NCBI GenBank assembly: GCA_044371145.1
Contig: JBILUI010000013.1
Span: 1-26,796, forward strand
Direction of reading: 5' to 3'
DNA from: Chthoniobacterales bacterium
GTDB lineage: Bacteria; Verrucomicrobiota; Verrucomicrobiia; Chthoniobacterales; JACTMZ01
Length of the DNA: 26,796 nt
Under the pieces are notes generated by a model. That model did no database searches and was not told the DNA's origin. It worked only from the letters and a program-made list of their open reading frames with translations. The position numbers were made by a program, and so were the translations under genes. Of this stretch, positions 11,938 to 21,562 are shown piece by piece; the first letter of the stretch is position 1, and every line of letters begins with the position of its first letter.

Positions 11938-12558
11938 ATGACGACATCTCCCGTCGAATTGCCGCAGACCATCCCGGTCATGGCCCTCAGCGGCGTGACG
12001 CTTTTCCCCAACGCCCTGCTGCCGCTCTGCATTTTCGAGCCGCGCTACCGTCAGATGCTCGAGTCGGTGCTAGCCGGGGACCGCATTTTCGCGGTCGGCA
12101 TGGTCCGCCCTGACACGGGAGAAGAGAGCATTTTTCCCGTGGCGGGAGCCGGCTTGGTGCGGGCCTGCGTGGGACAGCCCGACGGCACGAGCCAACTCAT
12201 CCTGCAGGGCATCGGGCGCGTGCGTTTCGAGAGCTTCCCGCAGACCGAACCCTACCTGATCGGACGTGCGGAGCCGGTGCTGACGGTCAATGACGACGAG
12301 GAGGCGGCGCGCAAACTGGGCGCGGAACTGCAGGACATTTGTATGGGTCTTGTTTCGCGCGGGGTCGAATTGCCCGAGCCGTTCACGCGTGCGGTCGGCG
12401 AAATGAACGACCCGGCGGTGCTCGGCGACCTCGTCGCTCAGCACCTCGTGCGCGAACCGCTCTCCGCCCAGGAAATCCTCGGCGAAACAAATCTTCCCGC
12501 GCGTCTGCGCCGGCTTGTCGGGGTCCTGCGGCAGGAATGGCAGCAGTTCCCCGCCTGA
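11938..12558 (+). CDS. Stand-alone Lon protease N-terminal (substrate-binding, PUA-like) domain protein
   Basis: The 206-aa sequence LPVMALSGVTLFPNALLPLCIFEPRYRQML... matches the LON N-domain pattern. It has no AAA+ or protease module. Confidence 0.8.
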   Translation: MTTSPVELPQTIPVMALSGVTLFPNALLPLCIFEPRYRQMLESVLAGDRIFAVGMVRPDTGEESIFPVAGAGLVRACVGQPDGTSQLILQGIGRVRFESFPQTEPYLIGRAEPVLTVNDDEEAARKLGAELQDICMGLVSRGVELPEPFTRAVGEMNDPAVLGDLVAQHLVREPLSAQEILGETNLPARLRRLVGVLRQEWQQFPA

Positions 12559-12608: not shown

Positions 12609-13970
12609 ATGTTGGAGCTTTTTGCGGAAACCGACGACTCGCGCAAACCGTGGTCGGTCACGCGTCTCAACCGCGAAGTGCGCGCGTGCCTCGAGGGATC
12701 AATCGGCACGATCCGGGTCGAGGGCGAGATTTCCAATCTCCGCCGTCAGCCCTCCGGGCACCAATATTTCAGCCTGAAAGACGAGGCGTGCCAGGTCTCG
12801 TGCGTCCTTTTCCGCAGCGCGGGGGCGTCGGGGCCCGCTTTGCGCGACGGCATGCAGGTCGAGCTTTCGGGACAGATCAGTGTCTACGAACCGCGCGGAC
12901 AATACCAAGTGGTGGTGCGCCGCGTACAACCGCGCGGCGCCGGCGAACTTGAAGCCAAGCTGCGGGCGCTGCAGGAAAAACTGCGGGACGAGGGGTTGTT
13001 CGATCCCGCGCGGAAACGCACACTGCCGCCGCATCCTTCTCGTGTCGGCGTGGTGACATCACCGAGCGGCGCGGCCATCCGTGATTTCCTCCATATCCTG
13101 GGCCGGCGCGCGCCGCATCTCGCCGTCTTCATCGCTCCGGTGCGCGTGCAGGGACGTGGTGCCTCGCTCGAAATCGCCGCGGCCATCGAGTCGTTCTCCG
13201 AGACCGGACGCAGCGGATTTCCCAACGTCGACGTGGTCGTGGTCACACGCGGCGGCGGCAGCCTGGAGGATTTGTGGGAATTCAACGAAGAGGTGGTGGC
13301 CCGCGCCATCGCAGCCTGCCGTATTCCGGTTATCTCCGCCGTGGGACACGAAATCGACCACACCACGTCGGACCTCGCCGCGGACGTGCGCGCCCCCACC
13401 CCGAGTGCGGCGGCGGAAATCCTCAGCGCGGACCGCGCCGAGACATTGCAGCGATTGTCCTCGCTGCTGCACCGGCTGCAACGCGAAACGGAAGCGATGC
13501 TCGATGTGGCCCGCGCGCGCCTCGATGCGCGCCTTTCCTCGGCAGGATTTCTCCTCCCTTCGCGGCGCATCACCGATCTGCGCCAGTTGACCGACGATTT
13601 GCGCGAGCGCGGCGCCGACGCGATACGCAGCCATCTCGATTCGCTGATCCAGCGGACACAACACGCCGCCTCGGTCCTGCGCGCCAGAGAGCCTTCGGCG
13701 CGCCTTGCCGCTTGGCGCGAAAGCTTGGGGCAGCTTGAGCTTCGTCAAACCCGCGCGGTCGACACCTCGATGACCGTCCGCCGCCAGGCACAATCGCGCG
13801 CTGCACACGCGCTGGAATTACTCGGTCCGCGCCAGACACTGGCCCGCGGCTTCACCATGACCCTTGACGCCCAGCGCCGCCCCCTCACCTCTGCAGCCGA
13901 AGCGGTGCGTAAGGACAAAATCACCACCGTCTTCGCCGACGGGGAAGTCGCGTCGCGCCCCGAAAACTAG
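12609..13970 (+). CDS. xseA: Exodeoxyribonuclease VII large subunit
   Basis: N-terminal OB fold (VTRLNREVRACLEGSIGTIRVEGEISNL...SGHQYFSLKD), catalytic core (VVTSPSGAAIRD, VTRGGGSLEDLWEFN, ISAVGHEIDHT) and a C-terminal coiled-coil tail. Confidence 0.92.
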   Translation: MLELFAETDDSRKPWSVTRLNREVRACLEGSIGTIRVEGEISNLRRQPSGHQYFSLKDEACQVSCVLFRSAGASGPALRDGMQVELSGQISVYEPRGQYQVVVRRVQPRGAGELEAKLRALQEKLRDEGLFDPARKRTLPPHPSRVGVVTSPSGAAIRDFLHILGRRAPHLAVFIAPVRVQGRGASLEIAAAIESFSETGRSGFPNVDVVVVTRGGGSLEDLWEFNEEVVARAIAACRIPVISAVGHEIDHTTSDLAADVRAPTPSAAAEILSADRAETLQRLSSLLHRLQRETEAMLDVARARLDARLSSAGFLLPSRRITDLRQLTDDLRERGADAIRSHLDSLIQRTQHAASVLRAREPSARLAAWRESLGQLELRQTRAVDTSMTVRRQAQSRAAHALELLGPRQTLARGFTMTLDAQRRPLTSAAEAVRKDKITTVFADGEVASRPEN

Positions 13971-14644
13971 GCGGCGAATTCGCGCTCGCGTGGGGTGGCG
14001 CGGTTCCAGAGCGGCCACTCGCCCTCCGCATGGAAGACGCAGTGCTGGCCCATCGCTTGCTCGAGAAGCTTGAGGTAGGCAGCACGCCGGATTTCCACCG
14101 CGCCGAACATTTCGAGGTGATCCGTCACCCACTGGATATCGAGCAGGCCGAAGTTGCGCTCGCGCAGGATCTCGACAAGCGAGAGCAAGGCCAACTTCGA
14201 CGCTTCGCTCACCCGCGAGAACATGGACTCGCCGAAGAACGCGCCGCCGAGCTGCACGCCATAAAGGCCGCCGGCCAGTCGCCCCTCAGACCAAACTTCC
14301 ACGCTGTGCGCCGCACCCTGCGCGTGCAACTGCGAGTAGACACGCGCGATGGACGGATCGATCCAAGTCTCAGGGCGCTCGGCGCAGCCCGAGACGACTT
14401 CGTCGAACGCGCTATTGATCGTCACGGTAAAATCGAGCCGTGGCAAAGCACGACGAAAACCGTGCGGCAGGCGGAACTCATCGATCGGCAGGATTCCGCG
14501 CGGGTCCGGCGAAAACCAGCGCAGGCGCCCATCCCCGCACCCCATGGGAAAAAACCCGTCGCGGTAAGCGCGCAGCACCGAGACAGGGCTGAGCCGCTCC
14601 GGCGGGAAGGACTGGGAGACGAGGTCCGACATCGCCCCATACAT
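13967..14644 (-). CDS. aat: Leucyl/phenylalanyl-tRNA--protein transferase
   Basis: LRAYRDGFFPMG, WFSPDPRGIL, AHSVEVW and GGLYGVQLGGAFFGESMFSRVSEASKLAL closely parallel E. coli Aat. The first ATG is at 14644, an alternative ATG is at 14632, and the track start 14653 is a TTG. Confidence 0.9.
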   Translation of the reverse strand: MYGAMSDLVSQSFPPERLSPVSVLRAYRDGFFPMGCGDGRLRWFSPDPRGILPIDEFRLPHGFRRALPRLDFTVTINSAFDEVVSGCAERPETWIDPSIARVYSQLHAQGAAHSVEVWSEGRLAGGLYGVQLGGAFFGESMFSRVSEASKLALLSLVEILRERNFGLLDIQWVTDHLEMFGAVEIRRAAYLKLLEQAMGQHCVFHAEGEWPLWNRATPREREFAA

Positions 14645-14742
14645 TTGCCGCAAACCCGCCGTCCACGCAACCCGGTCATTACGGATTGCCGCCCTGACCG
14701 TCCGGGCCTATTAAAGAGGGCTACGCCGAAACCGACCGCCAC

Positions 14743-16458
14743 ATGATCTCCGACAACGCTAACCCGCCATCGCTCTCCAAAGTCGAGGGCGTCAAAGAAG
14801 CCAGCAATTACCTGCGCGGCACCCTTGCGGCCAGCCTCGAGGACCGTTCGACCGGCGCCATCGCCGACGACGACACAACCGTCTCCAAATTCCACGGCAT
14901 CTACCAGCAGGACCACCGCGACCAGCGCAACGAACGGAAGAAAGCGGGGCTCGAGAAGGCTTTCATCTTCATGATCCGCATCCGCGTGCCCGGCGGTGTC
15001 TGCACTCCGGAGCAATGGCTCAAAATCGACGCGCTGGCGGACCAATACGGCAGCCACACCCTCAAGCTGACCACGCGTCAGGCTTTCCAGCTGCATTTCA
15101 TCACCAAAGACGTCCTCAAAACAACCATGCAGGGGATCGACAAGGCCGTGATGGATTGCATCGCGGCCTGCGGCGACGTGAACCGCAACGTCATGGCCAA
15201 CCCGAACCCGTATCAGTCGGCCCTGCACGGACCCGTGCTGGACGACGCCCGCGCGGTCAGCACCCACCTCACCCCGCGGACCCGCGCGTATCACGAGGTT
15301 TGGTTGGATGGCGAAAAAATCTCGGCCGAAGACGAGGAAGAGCCGATCTACGGAAAGACTTACCTCCCGCGCAAATTCAAAACCGGCTTCGCCGTGCCGC
15401 CGAGCAACGACGTCGATATCTACACGCAAGACCTCGGATTCATCGCCATAGGCGAGAACGACAGACTTCTCGGCTACAACCTTTCGGTCGGCGGTGGCCT
15501 TGGCATGTCGCACGGCGACACCAAGACATACCCGCGTCTGGCCAATGTCATCGGCTACCTACCGCGCGAGAAAGTGGTCGAAGTCGCGGAAAAAGTCCTC
15601 ACCGTGCAGCGCGATTTCGGCGACCGCACCAACCGGAAGCACGCCCGCCTCAAATACACCATCGAGGACCGCGGCGTGGAATGGTTCAAAAACGAGCTCG
15701 AATCACGCCTCGGCTGGAAACTCGGCGAGACGCGTCCTTTCGAATTCACCAGCTCAGGTGACCGCTATGGCTGGACCAAAGGCACGGACGGCAACTGGCA
15801 CTACGGGCTCTTTATCCAGAACGGGCGCCTGCGCGACACCGAGGATCAGCCCGCCAAGACCGGCCTGCGCGAGATCGCCAAGATCCATACCGGCGACTTC
15901 CGCCTCACCGCGAATCAAAACGTCGTCATCGGCGGCGTGACCGAGGAGCAAAAGCCGCGCATCGAGGCCATGCTCAAGCAATACAAACTCGATATCCCCG
16001 AGCGCATCACCGGACTGCGTTTGAACTCCATGGCCTGCGTCGCCCTGCCAACCTGCGGCCTCGCGCTGGCCGAAAGCGAACGCTACCTGCCGCAGCTCGT
16101 CACCGAACTCGATCAAGTGATCGAAGAATGCGGATTGCGCGAGACGGAGATCGTCATCCGCATGACCGGATGCCCCAATGGCTGCGCGCGTCCCTACCTC
16201 GGCGAGATCGGTTTCGTCGGCCGTGCCCCCGGCAAATACAACATCTACCTCGGCGCGGCCTTCGACGGCGCGCGGCTGAACAAGCTCTACAAGCCGTCAG
16301 TCAAATCGGAGGACATCGTCAACGAACTCGCTCCGATCATTCGGCGCTACGCCAAGGAACGGCAGGAAGGCGAACACTTCGGCGATTTCACCATCCGCGC
16401 CGGTTACGTCAAAGCCACGACCGAAGGTCGCCTCTTCCACGAGGACATCATGGCCTGA
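14743..16458 (+). CDS. cysI: Assimilatory sulfite reductase hemoprotein (CysI-type, siroheme/4Fe-4S)
   Basis: Collinear with E. coli CysI as I remember it: [26 protein letters not shown]. Cluster/siroheme cysteines occur in [14 protein letters not shown] and [11 protein letters not shown]. Confidence 0.92.
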
Positions 16459-16480
16459 GGCGCGCTCGACCGCCCTCAAA

Positions 16481-16591
16481 TTGTAGCGGCGGTCAGCCGA
16501 GCGAAGCGAGACAGGTCGCCGCGGCGACCAACTGATATGACCGCCGGACCATTCACCATAAATTCACCGACGGACATAGTCCGCCGCTACA
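16481..16591. repeat. REP/MITE-like element: inverted copies of a TGTAGCGGCGG-core unit flanking a 16-bp perfect palindrome
   Basis: TTGTAGCGGCGGTC lies at 16481..16494 (+). The 27-nt unit CACCGACGGACATAGTCCGCCGCTACA lies at 16565..16591 (inverted). GGTCGCCGCGGCGACC lies at 16514..16529. The element fills the convergent cysI/transglutaminase junction. The 27-mer matches the unit at 24666..24692 at 23 of 27 positions. Confidence 0.5.
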
Positions 16592-17438
16592 CATCGGGGC
16601 GACGGGAAATCGCAAGCTTCGTCTCCAACCGGTGCGGAATTTTCCGGTCGCCGAAATACAGTCCGGTCACGGGCGCGATGTCGCCGGGCGCGATCCCAAC
16701 GGCGGTCGCGAGGTAATGGTGGTCGGCCAGAACACCATTCGAGGGATCCATTCCCACCCACCCCGCGCCAGGGAGAAACACTTCAGTCCACGCGTGGAGC
16801 GAGCCGTCAGCTTTGCGTTCGGCCGGATCGCTGACGCTTTCCCAGAGATATCCGCTGACCAAACGCGCGGCGAGGCCTTGAGCCCGCAGCGCGGCGGCGA
16901 GCAAGGCAGCCGCGTCGCGGCAGGCCCCGCGGCGCAGTCGCAAGGTTTCGGCGGGCGGATGCGCTTCGCCGTCCTCGCGCCGCTCGTAGGCGATGTGCGT
17001 GTGCATCCATTGGTTCATGGCAACGAGCGCACCGACCGTCTCGCCGCCGGACATGGGCCGCAAAGCGGCTGGTAATTCGACCGGTTCCGTGACGGTGAAA
17101 GCGGCGAGCAACTCGCGTTCGCGCACCGTGTATTCGGGCGGCCACTGCAGCGCGCGGCTATCCAGTAGGAACCCGAAAGGATTGCGCTCTTCCACTTCGA
17201 TTTGCGCATCGAGTGAAAAGACGAGGCGATCCTCCTGGCGCGGGTAGAAACATTGGGCGACGATATTGTCGAACAAGTCGTGCCGCCAGTTGACGGAACC
17301 GCTTTCGTTCGTGGCAAAGCGCAGAGCGCGCACCCGCGCCTGCAGTGCGTCGCGGGGAAACAGGCGCAGGACGTGGGGCGAGAGGCTGACTTTGCCCTCG
17401 TAGCGGTATTCAGCCCTGTATTCGACAGTGAGATTCAT
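16587..17438 (-). CDS. Transglutaminase-like cysteine peptidase family protein (paralog 2)
   Basis: N-terminal Bact_transglu_N-like start (VEYRAEYRYEGKVSLSPHVLRLFPR). Core triad Cys173 (RRGACRDAA), His215 (LHAWTEV) and Asp231 (GMDPSNG). The ATG overlaps the stop of the upstream paralog (ATGA). Confidence 0.85.
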   Translation of the reverse strand: MNLTVEYRAEYRYEGKVSLSPHVLRLFPRDALQARVRALRFATNESGSVNWRHDLFDNIVAQCFYPRQEDRLVFSLDAQIEVEERNPFGFLLDSRALQWPPEYTVRERELLAAFTVTEPVELPAALRPMSGGETVGALVAMNQWMHTHIAYERREDGEAHPPAETLRLRRGACRDAAALLAAALRAQGLAARLVSGYLWESVSDPAERKADGSLHAWTEVFLPGAGWVGMDPSNGVLADHHYLATAVGIAPGDIAPVTGLYFGDRKIPHRLETKLAISRRPDV

Positions 17439-18295
17439 GTGATGCGCTTCATGACAACCTTGACCGACATCTCCTGTCCGCCGCTGCCCTTGAACGTCCC
17501 GCGCAGCGGTGCAGCGTCGGCAAAATCACGTCCGAAAGATACCGCGACATGGCGCTCGCCACACCATTGATTGTTGGTTGGGTCGAGGGCGACCCATTCC
17601 ATGCCCGGCACAAGCACCTCCACCCATGCGTGTGTGGCCACCGCACCGACCAGCCGTGCCGCGCCTTCGGGTGGATCGGTCTCGATGTAACCGCAGACAT
17701 AGCGCGCGGGGAGACCCGAGGTCCGGAGCACGCTGAGCATGATGTGGGCGAAATCCTGGCAGACCCCGCAGCGCGTCTTCCACACCTCGGCCAGCGGGGT
17801 GGACAAGTCCGTGCTGCCCTTGGCGTATTTGAACCCGTGGTGAACTTCCTTGTTCAGTGCGGATAAAGCTTCGCGCAGCGGAGTGTCGGATGGCAGCAAT
17901 CTGCGCCCCCACTTGGTCGCCTCGCCGCCGTTCAGCGCGGCCAACGTCCCGCGCAGATGATCAAAGACGTCGGTGGCCACCGAGGAAAATATCTGGCGGG
18001 CCTCACCGACAGTGAGGTCGAGCGCTTCCTCGGGAAGAACAGGCGGGACTGTCTCCACGCTCAAGCGGCTGGTCACGGCCAGTCTCTCGTGACGCCGGAT
18101 CATCGAATAAAAGACCGTCGGATTTCCAAAGTAGTCGGTGTAGCTCGTAACGGGAGAAGCCGGCGCGAATTCGACCGCGTGCGACAGGATCTTCTGGGTC
18201 GGCCTCGGCGGCGGCGTGAGGCGTGCCTCGACATAGGCTTCGCTGGCCGGTTGCTCGTAGCGGTAGTCGGTGACGTGCGTTATGTCGAAGCGCAT
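17435..18295 (-). CDS. Transglutaminase-like cysteine peptidase family protein (paralog 1)
   Basis: MRFDITHVTDYRYEQPASEAYVEARLTP (Bact_transglu_N-like). Core triad Cys179 (RCGVCQDFAH), His222 (THAWVEV) and Asp238 (ALDPTNN). The gene starts 5 nt after the stop of the ATP-grasp/alpha-E gene. Confidence 0.88.
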   Translation of the reverse strand: MRFDITHVTDYRYEQPASEAYVEARLTPPPRPTQKILSHAVEFAPASPVTSYTDYFGNPTVFYSMIRRHERLAVTSRLSVETVPPVLPEEALDLTVGEARQIFSSVATDVFDHLRGTLAALNGGEATKWGRRLLPSDTPLREALSALNKEVHHGFKYAKGSTDLSTPLAEVWKTRCGVCQDFAHIMLSVLRTSGLPARYVCGYIETDPPEGAARLVGAVATHAWVEVLVPGMEWVALDPTNNQWCGERHVAVSFGRDFADAAPLRGTFKGSGGQEMSVKVVMKRIT

Positions 18296-18300
18296 AGGGT

Positions 18301-20838
18301 TCAGTCCGCCGGTTGGTGATTGATGAATCCGTCGGTCACCACGTCGTGGACTTGGTGGGTCTGCTCATTGATCTCCTCGAGCCGGCGCACCAACCCGTCG
18401 AGCGAGGGCGCCTGCAGAGATGCACCCGGGAAAAACATTTCCCAGTCCGAGACTTCGATCAATCGCACGACGCCATTGACGGTGTCTTGCGACCGGGCGG
18501 CACCGGCCGATTCGTGTCCGTGCTCCGCGAGCAGGCGCGCGCACTCGCCGAGACACTTGCGAACCGAGCGCGGCACTTCCTCATTCGCGTAAAGCATGCG
18601 CAGAACGGGAACAGGCTCGGCGCGCATCTGGTAAAGCCGGTGGTAAGCGTCGCGCGAGGCCAACATGCGGAGAAAGGCGGACAACTCGATTTCCACCGGG
18701 TGATCGTCGTTGTCCGCGGATTTCGCCGCGCGCTTGGCCAGAGATTTGAAAACAGTGACCCCCGCGTTGCAGGTGATCACCGCACGTTCGAACTGCTGGC
18801 CGAAGCGGCAAAAGTTCCATCCGCGGTCGGAAAGCATGGTCGCCTCGGCCAGACCGAAGAATTCCGCGACAGCCGAGCCCGTGTCGGAGCAGAGGCGCTG
18901 CGTAGCCAAAGAAAGACGGGTTTCGTCGCCCTCGGGCTTGAACTTCACCCGGCCGAATTTTTCCTCGAGGTTGTTGAGAGCGCCGGATGCCTCCATGCTC
19001 AGCGACTCTTGGATTTGCCGGGCATTCCACCAGGCGCGCTGCAAAGTTCCGAGCAACGACCCCTCTTCGCGCGCATCGAAAACGATGCGGTAGCGTTCTG
19101 ACGGCGTGTTAATGCTGCGCTTGCGACCGGAATCCGTCTGCTCGAGCGGAGGAAGCATGCGGTTCCAGACGGGACGATAAAGCTGCCTTTCCTCCCGGGT
19201 AAGCTCCTCGGTCTCGAGGCTTTCCACCACGCCCACCATGCAGGCGAGGCTGGAGGCACGCTCGAGGTAGCGCCCGAGCCAGTAAAACGAGTCCGCCACG
19301 CGGCTGGTCACGCGCGCCGCGGGACCAGCTTGATCGGGAGGCAGCGCGACCCGCGGCCGTTGCGGGTCGGCGTGATCCGACAAGACCCACGTGTCTTTGC
19401 CGCCACCGCCAAGCTCGGACGCGGTGAAAATGCGGTCGGGCGCCGAGACGCGCGTCAGCGCCCCGGGAAAAACATCATATTCGCCTCCGGGACTACGCAA
19501 GGCGAAGACGATGTGATCCTGCCTGCGGTCGTCGAGCGCCCCGCGCCGGTCGAGACAGACGGTCGTCGCCCCCGAATCACGGGGCTGAGCGACATAGTGC
19601 TGCGGTTCCTCGGACAGAAGCTTTCGCAGCTTCTTGCCGTCTGTGGCCGTGGAGGCAGCACTGTGCACGATTTGCTCGCCGTAAAGAGGACGGATATCGA
19701 AATCATCGAGACGGTCAAGAACGTGGTCACGCTGGTCGAGATCGCCCAACCACCACGTGCGCAGAGTCGGCAGTTTTTCGTTCTCACCGAGGTAGAACCG
19801 GATGATCTGCGAGCTGAAAGGCAGGATAGCCCGGTCATCGGCCAGCCTCGTGCCGATGGCATTGGCCACGGCGACATGGCCATGCCGGACGCATTGAAGC
19901 AGACCCGGAACACCGAGGAGCGAGTCGCGACGGAAGACCATGGGATCGATCCATCCGTCGGCCACGCGCGTGTAAAGCACGTCGATTTTTTCGAGGCCGC
20001 TCACGCTTTTCAAATAAAGATGGTCGTCGAGAACGATGAGGTCTCCGCCTTGCACCAGCGGAATGCCCATGCGCCGGGCGAGGAAGCTGTGCTCGGAATA
20101 CGCCGCGTTGCCCGATCCCGGCGTAAGCAGGGCGACAACGGGATCGGATTCGCCGGACGGCGCCAAGGCGCGCAGCGATTCGAGCCATTGCAGAGGGATC
20201 TCCGCGATGCTCTGCGGGTTGTGATCGCGGAAGACCTCTCCGAAGACACGGGAGAGAGCGCGCCGGTTTTGCATCATGTAGGAAATGCCGGAGGCATCGC
20301 TGAAGTAATGGTGGGACACCGCCATGCGCCCGTCGGGCAATCGTGCCAGGGCGAAACCCGCCAGATGCAGAAAGGAGCCCCCGGGGGCAGGCAGGCCGAC
20401 TGCGGCCCTTTGGAAACAAGGACTTCCCAGCACCGGTTGAGCGGGGACGACGCGCTGGCGCAGGATCTCCTTCGGCCCGTGCATGTCGCGGAGAAAAAGT
20501 TCGAAGGCCCGCAGTCGCTGCCGGAAGCCCGCCTCGAGTTCGACCCACTCGGCGGCGTGGAAAATCTCCGGCAAAACATCGCAAAACCACGGGCTTTGGC
20601 GCCACTTCTGGCGTCCGCGCGACACATCGAAGTTGACCCCCATCTCGCGCATGGCCGCCTCGAGCCTCTCGATGACCGAGCGCAACTCGGGACGCGGGGT
20701 GGAAAGAACTCTGTCGAGAAGCGCGCGGTAAGCTTCGCGCGGCGCGCCGTCCGCGCCGAATACCTCGTCCCAAAGCGGACTCTTGCGGGCTTTTGCTTTC
20801 ACCGCCAAGACGGTTTCCGCCGCGCCCGACAGGGTCAA
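18301..20838 (-). CDS. Fusion protein: circularly permuted type-2 ATP-grasp domain (residues ~1-487) plus alpha-E domain (residues ~509-845)
   Basis: The N-terminal half carries [84 protein letters not shown] and [10 protein letters not shown], as in COG2308-type proteins. The C-terminal half starts [21 protein letters not shown], as in alpha-E (COG2307-type) proteins. The track start at 20838 is a TTG. Alternative in-frame TTG 20808 and GTG 20802 exist. Confidence 0.85.
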
Positions 20839-20848
20839 GGAGATACAA

Positions 20849-21562
20849 TCAGACTTTCTGCGTGACGCGCGCGCCGCGCGGCTTGCTGCGCAGGCGGAAC
20901 CAGTTGTTCCACGTCTTGCGGATGGTCTGGCGCGTGCTCAAGTATTGCTGCTCGAGCTCGGATCCTTTTTTCAACGCGGCGAGAACCCCGGCCACGGAAA
21001 AATTGTCGGTGTCGAGAATGGTGCAGGCCACACCGACCGCGGCCGCGTGGTGCGCATCACTTCCCGCCGTCATGGGCAAACCGCGTTTCTCCGCATATTG
21101 ATACGCTTTGCGGTTGTGGCGTTTGAGTGTGGTCGCGGCATTGAAGACCTCGAGCCCGTCGAGCGGCAAAGTATCCAGAACGCTCTCGCGGATCCCCGCG
21201 CGGAACAGATCGTAGGGATGCGGCGCCACGCAGATGCCCCCCGCCTCGCGGGCCAGACGACAAACATCAAGCGAGGGTTTTCCTTTGAGCGACGAGGGCA
21301 AATGACAACCGAGGCAAAGGAGATGTCCGTCGGCGGTCGTCACCTCGACGCCGGGAATGACAAGGAAGCCGTCGACCGGCTTGCCGTCCGCACGCATCAG
21401 GCCCTTGCCGAGCATATAGTCAACCGCGTCGCACGTGTTGTGGTCCGTAATGGCGAAGCCGTTGAGCCCCGCCGCGCGCGCCGCGGCAATCAGGTCCTCC
21501 GGACTGCTCACGCCGTCCATAGAGAAAAACGAGTGGACATGGAAATCGATCCGCAGGGGCAT
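20849..21562 (-). CDS. PHP-domain metal-dependent phosphoesterase
   Basis: [17 protein letters not shown] (HxH), AITDHNT, GVEV, VAPHP and GSDAHH motifs of the PHP fold. I use ATG 21562. The upstream 29 codons of the track ORF lack support. The stop lies 10 nt before the ATP-grasp gene. Confidence 0.85.

Follow-up and report, generated by a model that had tools for sequence, protein, structure and literature searches.

Gene neighborhoods that combine a circularly permuted ATP-grasp ligase, an Alpha-E domain, and a transglutaminase-like protein were reportedly defined in 2009 by Iyer, Abhiman, Burroughs, and Aravind. The system is cited in several papers (PMC6376114, PMC5666114, and PMC3495828) and is predicted to work as a peptide ligase, the ligated tag being taken off again by the transglutaminase-like protein (PMC3495828, PMC5666114). 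We examined a locus of this kind in a stretch of 26,796 nucleotides (nt) from a Chthoniobacterales bacterium (phylum Verrucomicrobiota; GenBank assembly GCA_044371145.1, contig JBILUI010000013.1, positions 1 to 26,796 of the forward strand; hereafter, the window). Comparison of its sequence with those of other genomes indicates that the locus is a fused member of this known and very common system, lacking both the proteasome homolog Anbu and a DUF2126 protein, and that it forms an autonomous three-gene unit of the chromosome (positions 16587-20838) made up of a ligase and two small transglutaminase-like proteins, here called TG1 and TG2. We are highly confident of this membership and of the anatomy described below. 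What the unit does is less certain: an autonomous cassette with a ligase/amidase function is the best explanation overall, and we give it a probability of roughly 45%.

The ATP-grasp homolog of Yersinia frees phosphate from ATP, the proteins of the Yersinia operon show neither stable complexes nor Anbu peptidase activity, and release of ammonia has been raised as an idea for the system (PMC6376114). The Pseudomonas putida genes PP_2685 and PP_2688 are induced on nitrate relative to ammonium, the P. putida homolog approximately 16-fold (PMC8050072); a homolog in Bradyrhizobium has a predicted RpoN box. Rv2569c is reported to act as a protease on proteins in vitro, its inhibitor profile being of the serine type (PMC11081392), and one preprint finds that Rv2411c and Rv2567 do not make gamma-aminobutyric acid (GABA)-trehalose. 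A literature search returned no biochemical function beyond the Yersinia ATP hydrolysis and the Rv2411c/Rv2567 negatives, in agreement with the initial annotation of this DNA, a reading of its letters and open reading frames (ORFs) that had described the function as undefined.

Four ORFs occupy the minus strand at this locus (16587-17438, 17435-18295, 18301-20838 when read from a TTG codon, and 20849-21562), and profile searches against Pfam confirmed the domains that had been claimed for all four. The longest product matches CP_ATPgrasp_2 over positions 1-374 of the 374-position profile (384 bits, cut-off 32; E value of 8e-115), CP_ATPgrasp_1 (313 bits), and Alpha-E (161.7 bits, cut-off 20.8; 4e-47). 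Two residue pairs of its Alpha-E part, E526/R527 and E684/R685, are invariant among 47 homologs, and a sequence search aligns the protein with a solved relative, PDB 3n6x (2.7e-86). In the AlphaFold2 (AF2) model (predicted local distance difference test [pLDDT] of 74.6; predicted template modeling [pTM] score of 0.66), the N-terminal half is alpha/beta and the C-terminal half is all helical and confident, with high pLDDT. Foldseek again returns 3n6x as the best PDB fold (E value of 5e-27, TM score of 0.83); the Alpha-E half on its own matches no PDB fold significantly. The next folds are eukaryotic glutathione synthetases (about 1e-7 to 4e-9), Escherichia coli YgiC, and trypanothione synthetase; this likeness (Foldseek E values of 1e-3 to 4e-9 across the three) is accompanied by only 9 to 14% identity and by no match to Pfam GSP_synth.

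Homologs of the ligase number more than 5,300 at an E value of ≤1e-20, with the nearest named relatives in the Chthoniobacterales, and among 1.84 billion cluster representatives, fused and unfused homologs together account for 1,529 clusters (50% identity) at an E value of ≤1e-30. Most of the best 150 cluster representatives are 820 to 890 amino acids (aa) long, and the fused architecture is therefore both common and old. Linkage was followed by tblastn in 80 genome loci encoding the ligase, with the denominators given below referring to testable loci. The proposal that the locus belongs to the orphan ATP-grasp/Alpha-E/transglutaminase system is upheld by these comparisons, in that all three components score above their Pfam thresholds and lie together on one strand in the 80 genomes; the locus differs from the system as described in its fusion of ligase and Alpha-E, its two transglutaminase lineages, and its lack of Anbu and DUF2126. 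The Anbu operons of Pseudomonas and Yersinia (e.g., P. putida PP_2685-PP_2688) have homologous ligase, Alpha-E, and transglutaminase-like families, but their ATP-grasp and Alpha-E proteins come from separate genes, whereas both domains here belong to one polypeptide from a single ORF. No proteasome or Anbu domain was detected by Pfam in any large ORF of the window, as had been noted initially, nor does Anbu occur among the conserved neighbor clusters of the 80 ligase loci.

Both TG1 and TG2 contain the Pfam domains Bact_transglu_N and Transglut_core, and the complete Cys-His-Asp triads attributed to them are invariant among orthologs (C179/H222/D238 in 71 TG1 sequences and C173/H215/D231 in 67 TG2 sequences). 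They had been viewed as two equivalent transglutaminases but instead are distinct orthologous lineages: they share only about 25-29% identity with each other, each is conserved across the order, and TG1 stands beside the ligase in 75 of 78 loci and TG2 in 68 of 70. TG1 alone has been lost from three loci (L041, L045, and L068), which keep the ligase and TG2, and TG2 alone from two others (L055 and L066), which keep the ligase and TG1. TG2 is under purifying selection, with a ratio of nonsynonymous to synonymous substitution rates (dN/dS) of 0.10-0.13. Its AF2 model (pLDDT of 74.9) has as its best fold 3isr, a putative cysteine protease (Foldseek E value of 2.7e-13), and further matches TgpA, axonemal transglutaminase-like proteins, and animal transglutaminases.

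The orthology of the two proteins was traced in Proteobacteria, for which we used annotated plasmid and chromid records of Caballeronia and Azospirillum; a homolog search with TG2 did not reach beyond close Chthoniobacterales proteins and so did not show fusion partners directly. The proteobacterial set consists of a 1,165-aa transglutaminase-DUF2126 protein, an 860-aa fused ligase, and a 302-aa transglutaminase-family protein. In Caballeronia sp. SL2Y3 p1 and Azospirillum brasilense Sp7 p1, the fused ligase is 28% identical to the one studied here over the full length, and the small transglutaminase-like gene that follows it is the TG1 ortholog (37% identity, 9e-55, to the 302-aa Caballeronia protein and 34% to its Azospirillum counterpart). 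TG2 aligns with residues ~3-273 of the long proteins (34-36% identity; 2e-40 for Caballeronia, and 9e-41), to which TG1 is far less similar (2e-18), which marks their N-terminal module as the TG2 ortholog. The DUF2126 protein of sister loci aligns with residues 325-1123 of the long protein, and Azospirillum presents the same pattern. Because TG2 and DUF2126 match its separate parts, together they are a split form of the long protein, which in Chthoniobacterales, unlike in Proteobacteria, is placed after TG1. The Rv2566-Rv2569c region of Mycobacterium tuberculosis presumably has the same make-up as these fused-ligase clusters. Caballeronia sp. SL2Y3 plasmid p1 (410517-422357; L162/L163) additionally encodes a split ATP-grasp and Alpha-E pair beside its fused-ligase cluster, separated from it by an opposite-strand zinc metallopeptidase gene, so the split and fused subtypes coexist on this plasmid.

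A gene for DUF2126, a "putative amidoligase," lies a few nucleotides downstream of TG2 in 39 of 66 sister loci (671 aa; Pfam E value of 1e-135), including three (L003, L005, and L011) that also have the gene for a PHP-domain protein upstream of the ligase, as in the window. No DUF2126 match or remnant was found anywhere in the window. Whereas the locus had been described as a complete version of the system, it is reduced, with the DUF2126 partner lost in this lineage and only the TG2 half of the split long protein retained. In eight loci (e.g., L077:13322-14203 and L080:14195-15139), two further genes lie downstream of DUF2126, encoding a 293-aa protein without a Pfam match but with a GNAT-like motif by eye and an amidohydrolase of the histone deacetylase family (3.6e-45); these two genes may tie the system to acyl-amine or polyamine chemistry.

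In the window, the site of DUF2126 is taken by a spacer (16459-16586) with a predicted fold energy of -59 kcal/mol (z score of -1.9). The spacer contains the sole small ORF nearby (33 aa; 16476-16577, minus strand), which cannot be conserved because the corresponding spacer is only about 43 nt long in L004. Neither the cassette and its vicinity nor the neighbor clusters of the 80 loci yielded a conserved small precursor ORF. In this respect, the locus is unlike the ATP-grasp clusters for ribosomally synthesized and posttranslationally modified peptides (microviridin type).

The initial annotation began the ligase at TTG 20838, and both an 845-aa protein and a 10-nt gap to the PHP gene rest on that codon. 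We aligned the upstream regions of 81 loci, anchored on the conserved motif PLWDE, and found a bipartite element, TTGACC-N17-AAsssT-N6-8-GTG, in 62 of them (variants of the -10-like hexamer being AAGCCT, AACGGT, and AACCGT); the 19 loci without it comprise 17 in which the ligase follows ribF and two others. TTGACC itself is present in 61 of the 62 motif-bearing loci, and in 60 of the 62, the in-frame GTG follows it at a distance of 35, 36, or 37 nt. In 38 loci, many of which leave GTG as the sole possible ligase start, TTGACC is out of frame with the ligase ORF; one of the 38 is L010, a close relative in which the PHP gene is likewise present. A hexamer that is conserved and yet so often out of frame points to TTG 20838 being the first half of a -35-like element rather than a start codon, and the comparison therefore rejects the TTG start. 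The likely start is GTG 20802, which yields a protein of 833 aa and a PHP-ligase spacer of 46 nt. As to the tight packing reported for the four genes, the sequence read directly bears out the 5-nt gap between ligase and TG1 and the ATGA overlap of TG1 and TG2, but not the 10-nt gap.

Whereas the hexamers are conserved, the 17-nt spacer between them is variable (61 unique sequences), and the window matches the pattern exactly at one site only, the TTGACC-N17-AACCGT of this locus. The element is also kept regardless of which gene lies upstream. Together with a GTG placed 7 nt further on, these features suggest a promoter signature that predicts a leaderless mRNA, since the start codon sits where transcription should begin. 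A generic scan for sigma-70 promoters and terminators gave chance-level results only, with no site in the spacers, and did not flag this element. In Proteobacteria, homologs are responsive to nitrogen limitation or have an RpoN box, whereas the sigma-54 box TGGCAC-N5-TTGC has 30 matches against 31 expected, none of them near this locus. In the 17 ribF-type sister loci (L031, L041, L044, L050, and 13 others), TTGACC is absent, the ATG of the ligase overlaps the stop codon of a co-directional ribF (flavin adenine dinucleotide synthetase) as ATGA, and the ligase N terminus extends only ~7 residues beyond the conserved core; this arrangement is a different mode of expressing the same cassette.

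Features of the locus, with positions in the window and the basis for each assignment
Feature	Position	Strand	Basis or remark
PHP-domain metallohydrolase gene, 237 aa	20849..21562	-	Pfam PHP and PHP_C; neighbor, outside the cassette
-35-like hexamer TTGACC	20833..20838	-	Kept in 61/62 motif-bearing loci
-10-like hexamer AACCGT (family consensus AAsssT)	20810..20815	-	17 nt past TTGACC, 7 nt ahead of GTG
Fused ligase gene, 833 aa from GTG 20802 (likely start)	18301..20802	-	Pfam; conserved GTG; PDB 3n6x; AF2 and Foldseek
Circularly permuted ATP-grasp domain, residues 90-465 (845-aa numbering)	19444..20571	-	CP_ATPgrasp_2
Alpha-E domain, residues 511-838, all helical	18325..19308	-	Pfam, 4e-47
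Alpha-E ER motifs (two, invariant)	19258-19263 and 18784-18789	-	E526/R527 and E684/R685
TG1, small transglutaminase-fold Cys-His-Asp protein	17435..18295	-	Pfam; triad; orthology to Proteobacteria
TG1 triad	C179 17759-17761, H222 17630-17632, D238 17582-17584	-	Invariant in 71 orthologs
TG2, stand-alone transglutaminase module	16587..17438	-	Pfam; triad; match to long transglutaminase-DUF2126 proteins
TG2 triad	C173 16920-16922, H215 16794-16796, D231 16746-16748	-	Invariant in 67 orthologs
Spacer of 128 nt between TG2 and sulfite/nitrite reductase (convergent genes)	16459..16586	.	DUF2126 site in sister loci; long hairpin

The PHP gene had been counted as a fourth member, translationally coupled to the ligase, and a four-gene operon in which the PHP protein participates, for example by hydrolyzing a phosphorylated intermediate, has to be weighed against the three-gene unit. 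The PHP gene is on the same strand, the short spacer contains no terminator-like site, and the two genes adjoin in 11 of 75 Chthoniobacterales loci. Those same 11 loci, however, also retain the divergent ROK gene and, where the sequence extends far enough, the sulfite/nitrite reductase gene, and the adjacency thus reflects synteny within a clade. The other 64 ligase loci lack the PHP gene, the ligase being preceded in other clades by divergent rplM/rpsI or by co-directional ribF. The reverse comparison, with 80 metagenome loci encoding PHP orthologs (64-93% identity), places a ligase beside the PHP gene in only two and none nearby in the remaining 78. In two close relatives (L081 and L083; PHP proteins 93% and 89% identical), the cassette is absent and the PHP gene is kept, convergent with the sulfite/nitrite reductase gene such that their 3' ends abut or overlap (L081:6001-6720, L083:590-1324). 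More distant orthologs (64-73% identity; L093-L160) lie ~100 nt downstream of a gene for an MsbA-like ATP-binding cassette (ABC) exporter in 29 of 68 loci; a glycosyltransferase-9-like gene occurs further upstream in these loci, and a tyrosyl-tRNA synthetase gene is convergent downstream.

The PHP gene and the cassette also differ in their divergence. Against L001, nucleotide identity is 92-97% across the ROK and PHP genes and drops to 71-81% from ~20740 to the end of TG2, with the break near 20740-20800, and the synonymous divergence (dS) is 0.36 for the PHP gene versus about 1.1-1.3 for the cassette genes. This break and the discordant dS values indicate that the cassette has been exchanged by recombination independently of the PHP gene. 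Nor is the proposed translational coupling supported, since the likely ligase start is a later GTG behind a conserved promoter-like element that belongs to the ligase itself. The comparative data thus appear to largely refute the four-gene operon, which we regard as very improbable, and the PHP protein is very probably an unrelated bystander, more conserved than the cassette, rather than a member of the system. Even its label as a phosphoesterase is not established, since NCBIfam places it with the CehA/McbA family metallohydrolase domain (102 bits, cut-off 80); the sequence finds only distant PHP matches in the PDB.

For the three-gene cassette itself, we favor a ligase/amidase cycle. The ligase would use ATP to form an acyl-phosphate on the carboxylate of a short peptide-like substrate and would then join an amine (an amino acid, peptide, or polyamine) to the activated carboxylate, with the fused Alpha-E domain as a substrate-binding or regulatory partner. 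TG1 and TG2 would be cysteine amidases that hydrolyze or trim the same amide, such that the cassette would set the steady-state level of an amide-linked conjugate by the logic of glutathionylspermidine synthetase/amidase (GspSA). In E. coli GspSA, an ATP-dependent amide ligase makes a bond on which its partner, a papain-like cysteine amidase, also acts. The likeness is an analogy of logic, not membership: the amidases here have a transglutaminase fold rather than CHAP, and Alpha-E has no counterpart in GspSA. That the cycle acts on a small peptide or metabolite is put forward tentatively and is preferred over protein tagging because the fold neighbors of the ligase all act on small-peptide carboxylates and because ligase plus amidase is the GspSA design. 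Several points weigh against this view of the cassette. The literature search returned no substrate, product, or phenotype for any member of the system, so the mechanism is drawn by analogy only; the association of related ligases with Anbu and the reported proteolysis by Rv2569c (PMC11081392) point towards protein substrates rather than metabolites; and both AF2 models (ligase and TG2) are of moderate confidence (pLDDT of about 75). As to autonomy, the -10-like hexamer is G+C rich, unlike TATAAT, and the PHP gene may still be co-transcribed, as its 46-nt spacer has no terminator, making read-through from the PHP gene into the cassette possible.

The main competitor, which we consider unlikely but well ahead of the others, is the tagging of proteins or peptides predicted by Iyer and Aravind, in which the ligase would tag a target protein with an amino acid or peptide, at a carboxylate of a side chain or of the C terminus, Alpha-E would recruit the target, and TG1 and TG2 would be peptidases that remove or process the tag. 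This prediction is stated for the system in PMC3495828 and in the Anbu papers (PMC6376114, PMC5666114), and related operons carry Anbu itself. A 330-residue Alpha-E domain could serve as a protein adaptor, and the folds matched by the TG2 model include those of ciliary transglutaminase-like proteins and of protein transglutaminases. There is a eukaryotic parallel in the tubulin tyrosine ligase-like ATP-grasp enzymes and ciliary transglutaminase-like peptidases, where a ligase is likewise paired with a predicted tag-reversing hydrolase (Zhang and Aravind 2012, PMC3495828); axonemal transglutaminase-like proteins are among the matches of the TG2 model. The substrates of that eukaryotic system are proteins, however, and it has a nonpermuted ATP-grasp and lacks Alpha-E. 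The protein degradation reported for Rv2569c fits a peptidase role, but its inhibitor profile is unlike that of a cysteine enzyme (PMC11081392), and the Yersinia operon proteins gave neither stable complexes nor peptidase activity (PMC6376114). Tagging is further disfavored because the nearest ligase folds are all those of small-molecule peptide ligases and because neither the cassette nor its vicinity yielded a tag, a target, or a conserved precursor ORF. A more specific version, in which the cassette is a minimal, self-contained, and reversible tagging pathway with Alpha-E as target adaptor, two cysteine isopeptidases, and a leaderless transcript, is doubtful. It is also conceivable, if improbable, that TG1 and TG2 are true transglutaminases that transfer or cross-link acyl groups instead of hydrolyzing them and that link proteins to the ligase product, or to ammonia-releasing glutamine chemistry, in the physiology of nitrogen starvation. 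The Cys-His-Asp triad fits transamidation and hydrolysis alike, the fold matches include TG2 and TG3 of animals (transglutaminases distinct from the bacterial TG2 of this locus), factor XIII, and TgpA, and both the induction of Pseudomonas homologs under nitrogen limitation (PMC8050072) and the ammonia-release idea (PMC6376114) are in keeping with it. No experimental transglutaminase activity is reported for the family, however; its literature predicts peptidase or amidase action (PMC3495828), and 3isr, the structure matched best, bears the annotation of a putative cysteine protease.

The remainder of the window is housekeeping chromosome, with suf genes, an iron-type ABC transporter, hisD, folP, frr, pyrH, and xseA, together with the convergent sulfite/nitrite reductase gene, the divergent ROK kinase gene, aroB, and a HemN-like gene. 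PADLOC defense models matched none of the four proteins, Rfam and tRNA scans returned no matches, and a search for flanking repeats that would mark a mobile element yielded chance-level matches only. Elsewhere in the window are a leucyl/phenylalanyl-tRNA protein transferase gene (13967-14653, minus strand; Pfam E value of 9.5e-63), which is overlapped by a probably spurious plus-strand ORF without a Pfam match (14030-14746), and a gene for a protein with a Lon N-terminal domain (11938-12558, plus strand).

Three-gene cassettes of this kind are widespread in bacteria, and the present locus is an ordinary representative, slightly reduced. With 1,529 ligase clusters and no known substrate since its description in 2009, the system poses a question that the present comparison sharpens but that this locus does not solve. 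The conserved core consists of three genes, not four, and the PHP gene is to be left out of any reconstitution, for which the ligase construct should probably begin at GTG 20802. The core contains two transglutaminase-like lineages, one of which normally partners a second ligase, DUF2126, and experiments could be guided by the existing natural variants from which DUF2126, TG1, TG2, or the entire cassette is missing. Were the reversible tagging pathway to prove true, the cassette would join pupylation and ubiquitin-like tagging as another analogous prokaryotic pathway, and its presence or absence among near-identical Chthoniobacterales genomes would offer a comparison for finding the targets.

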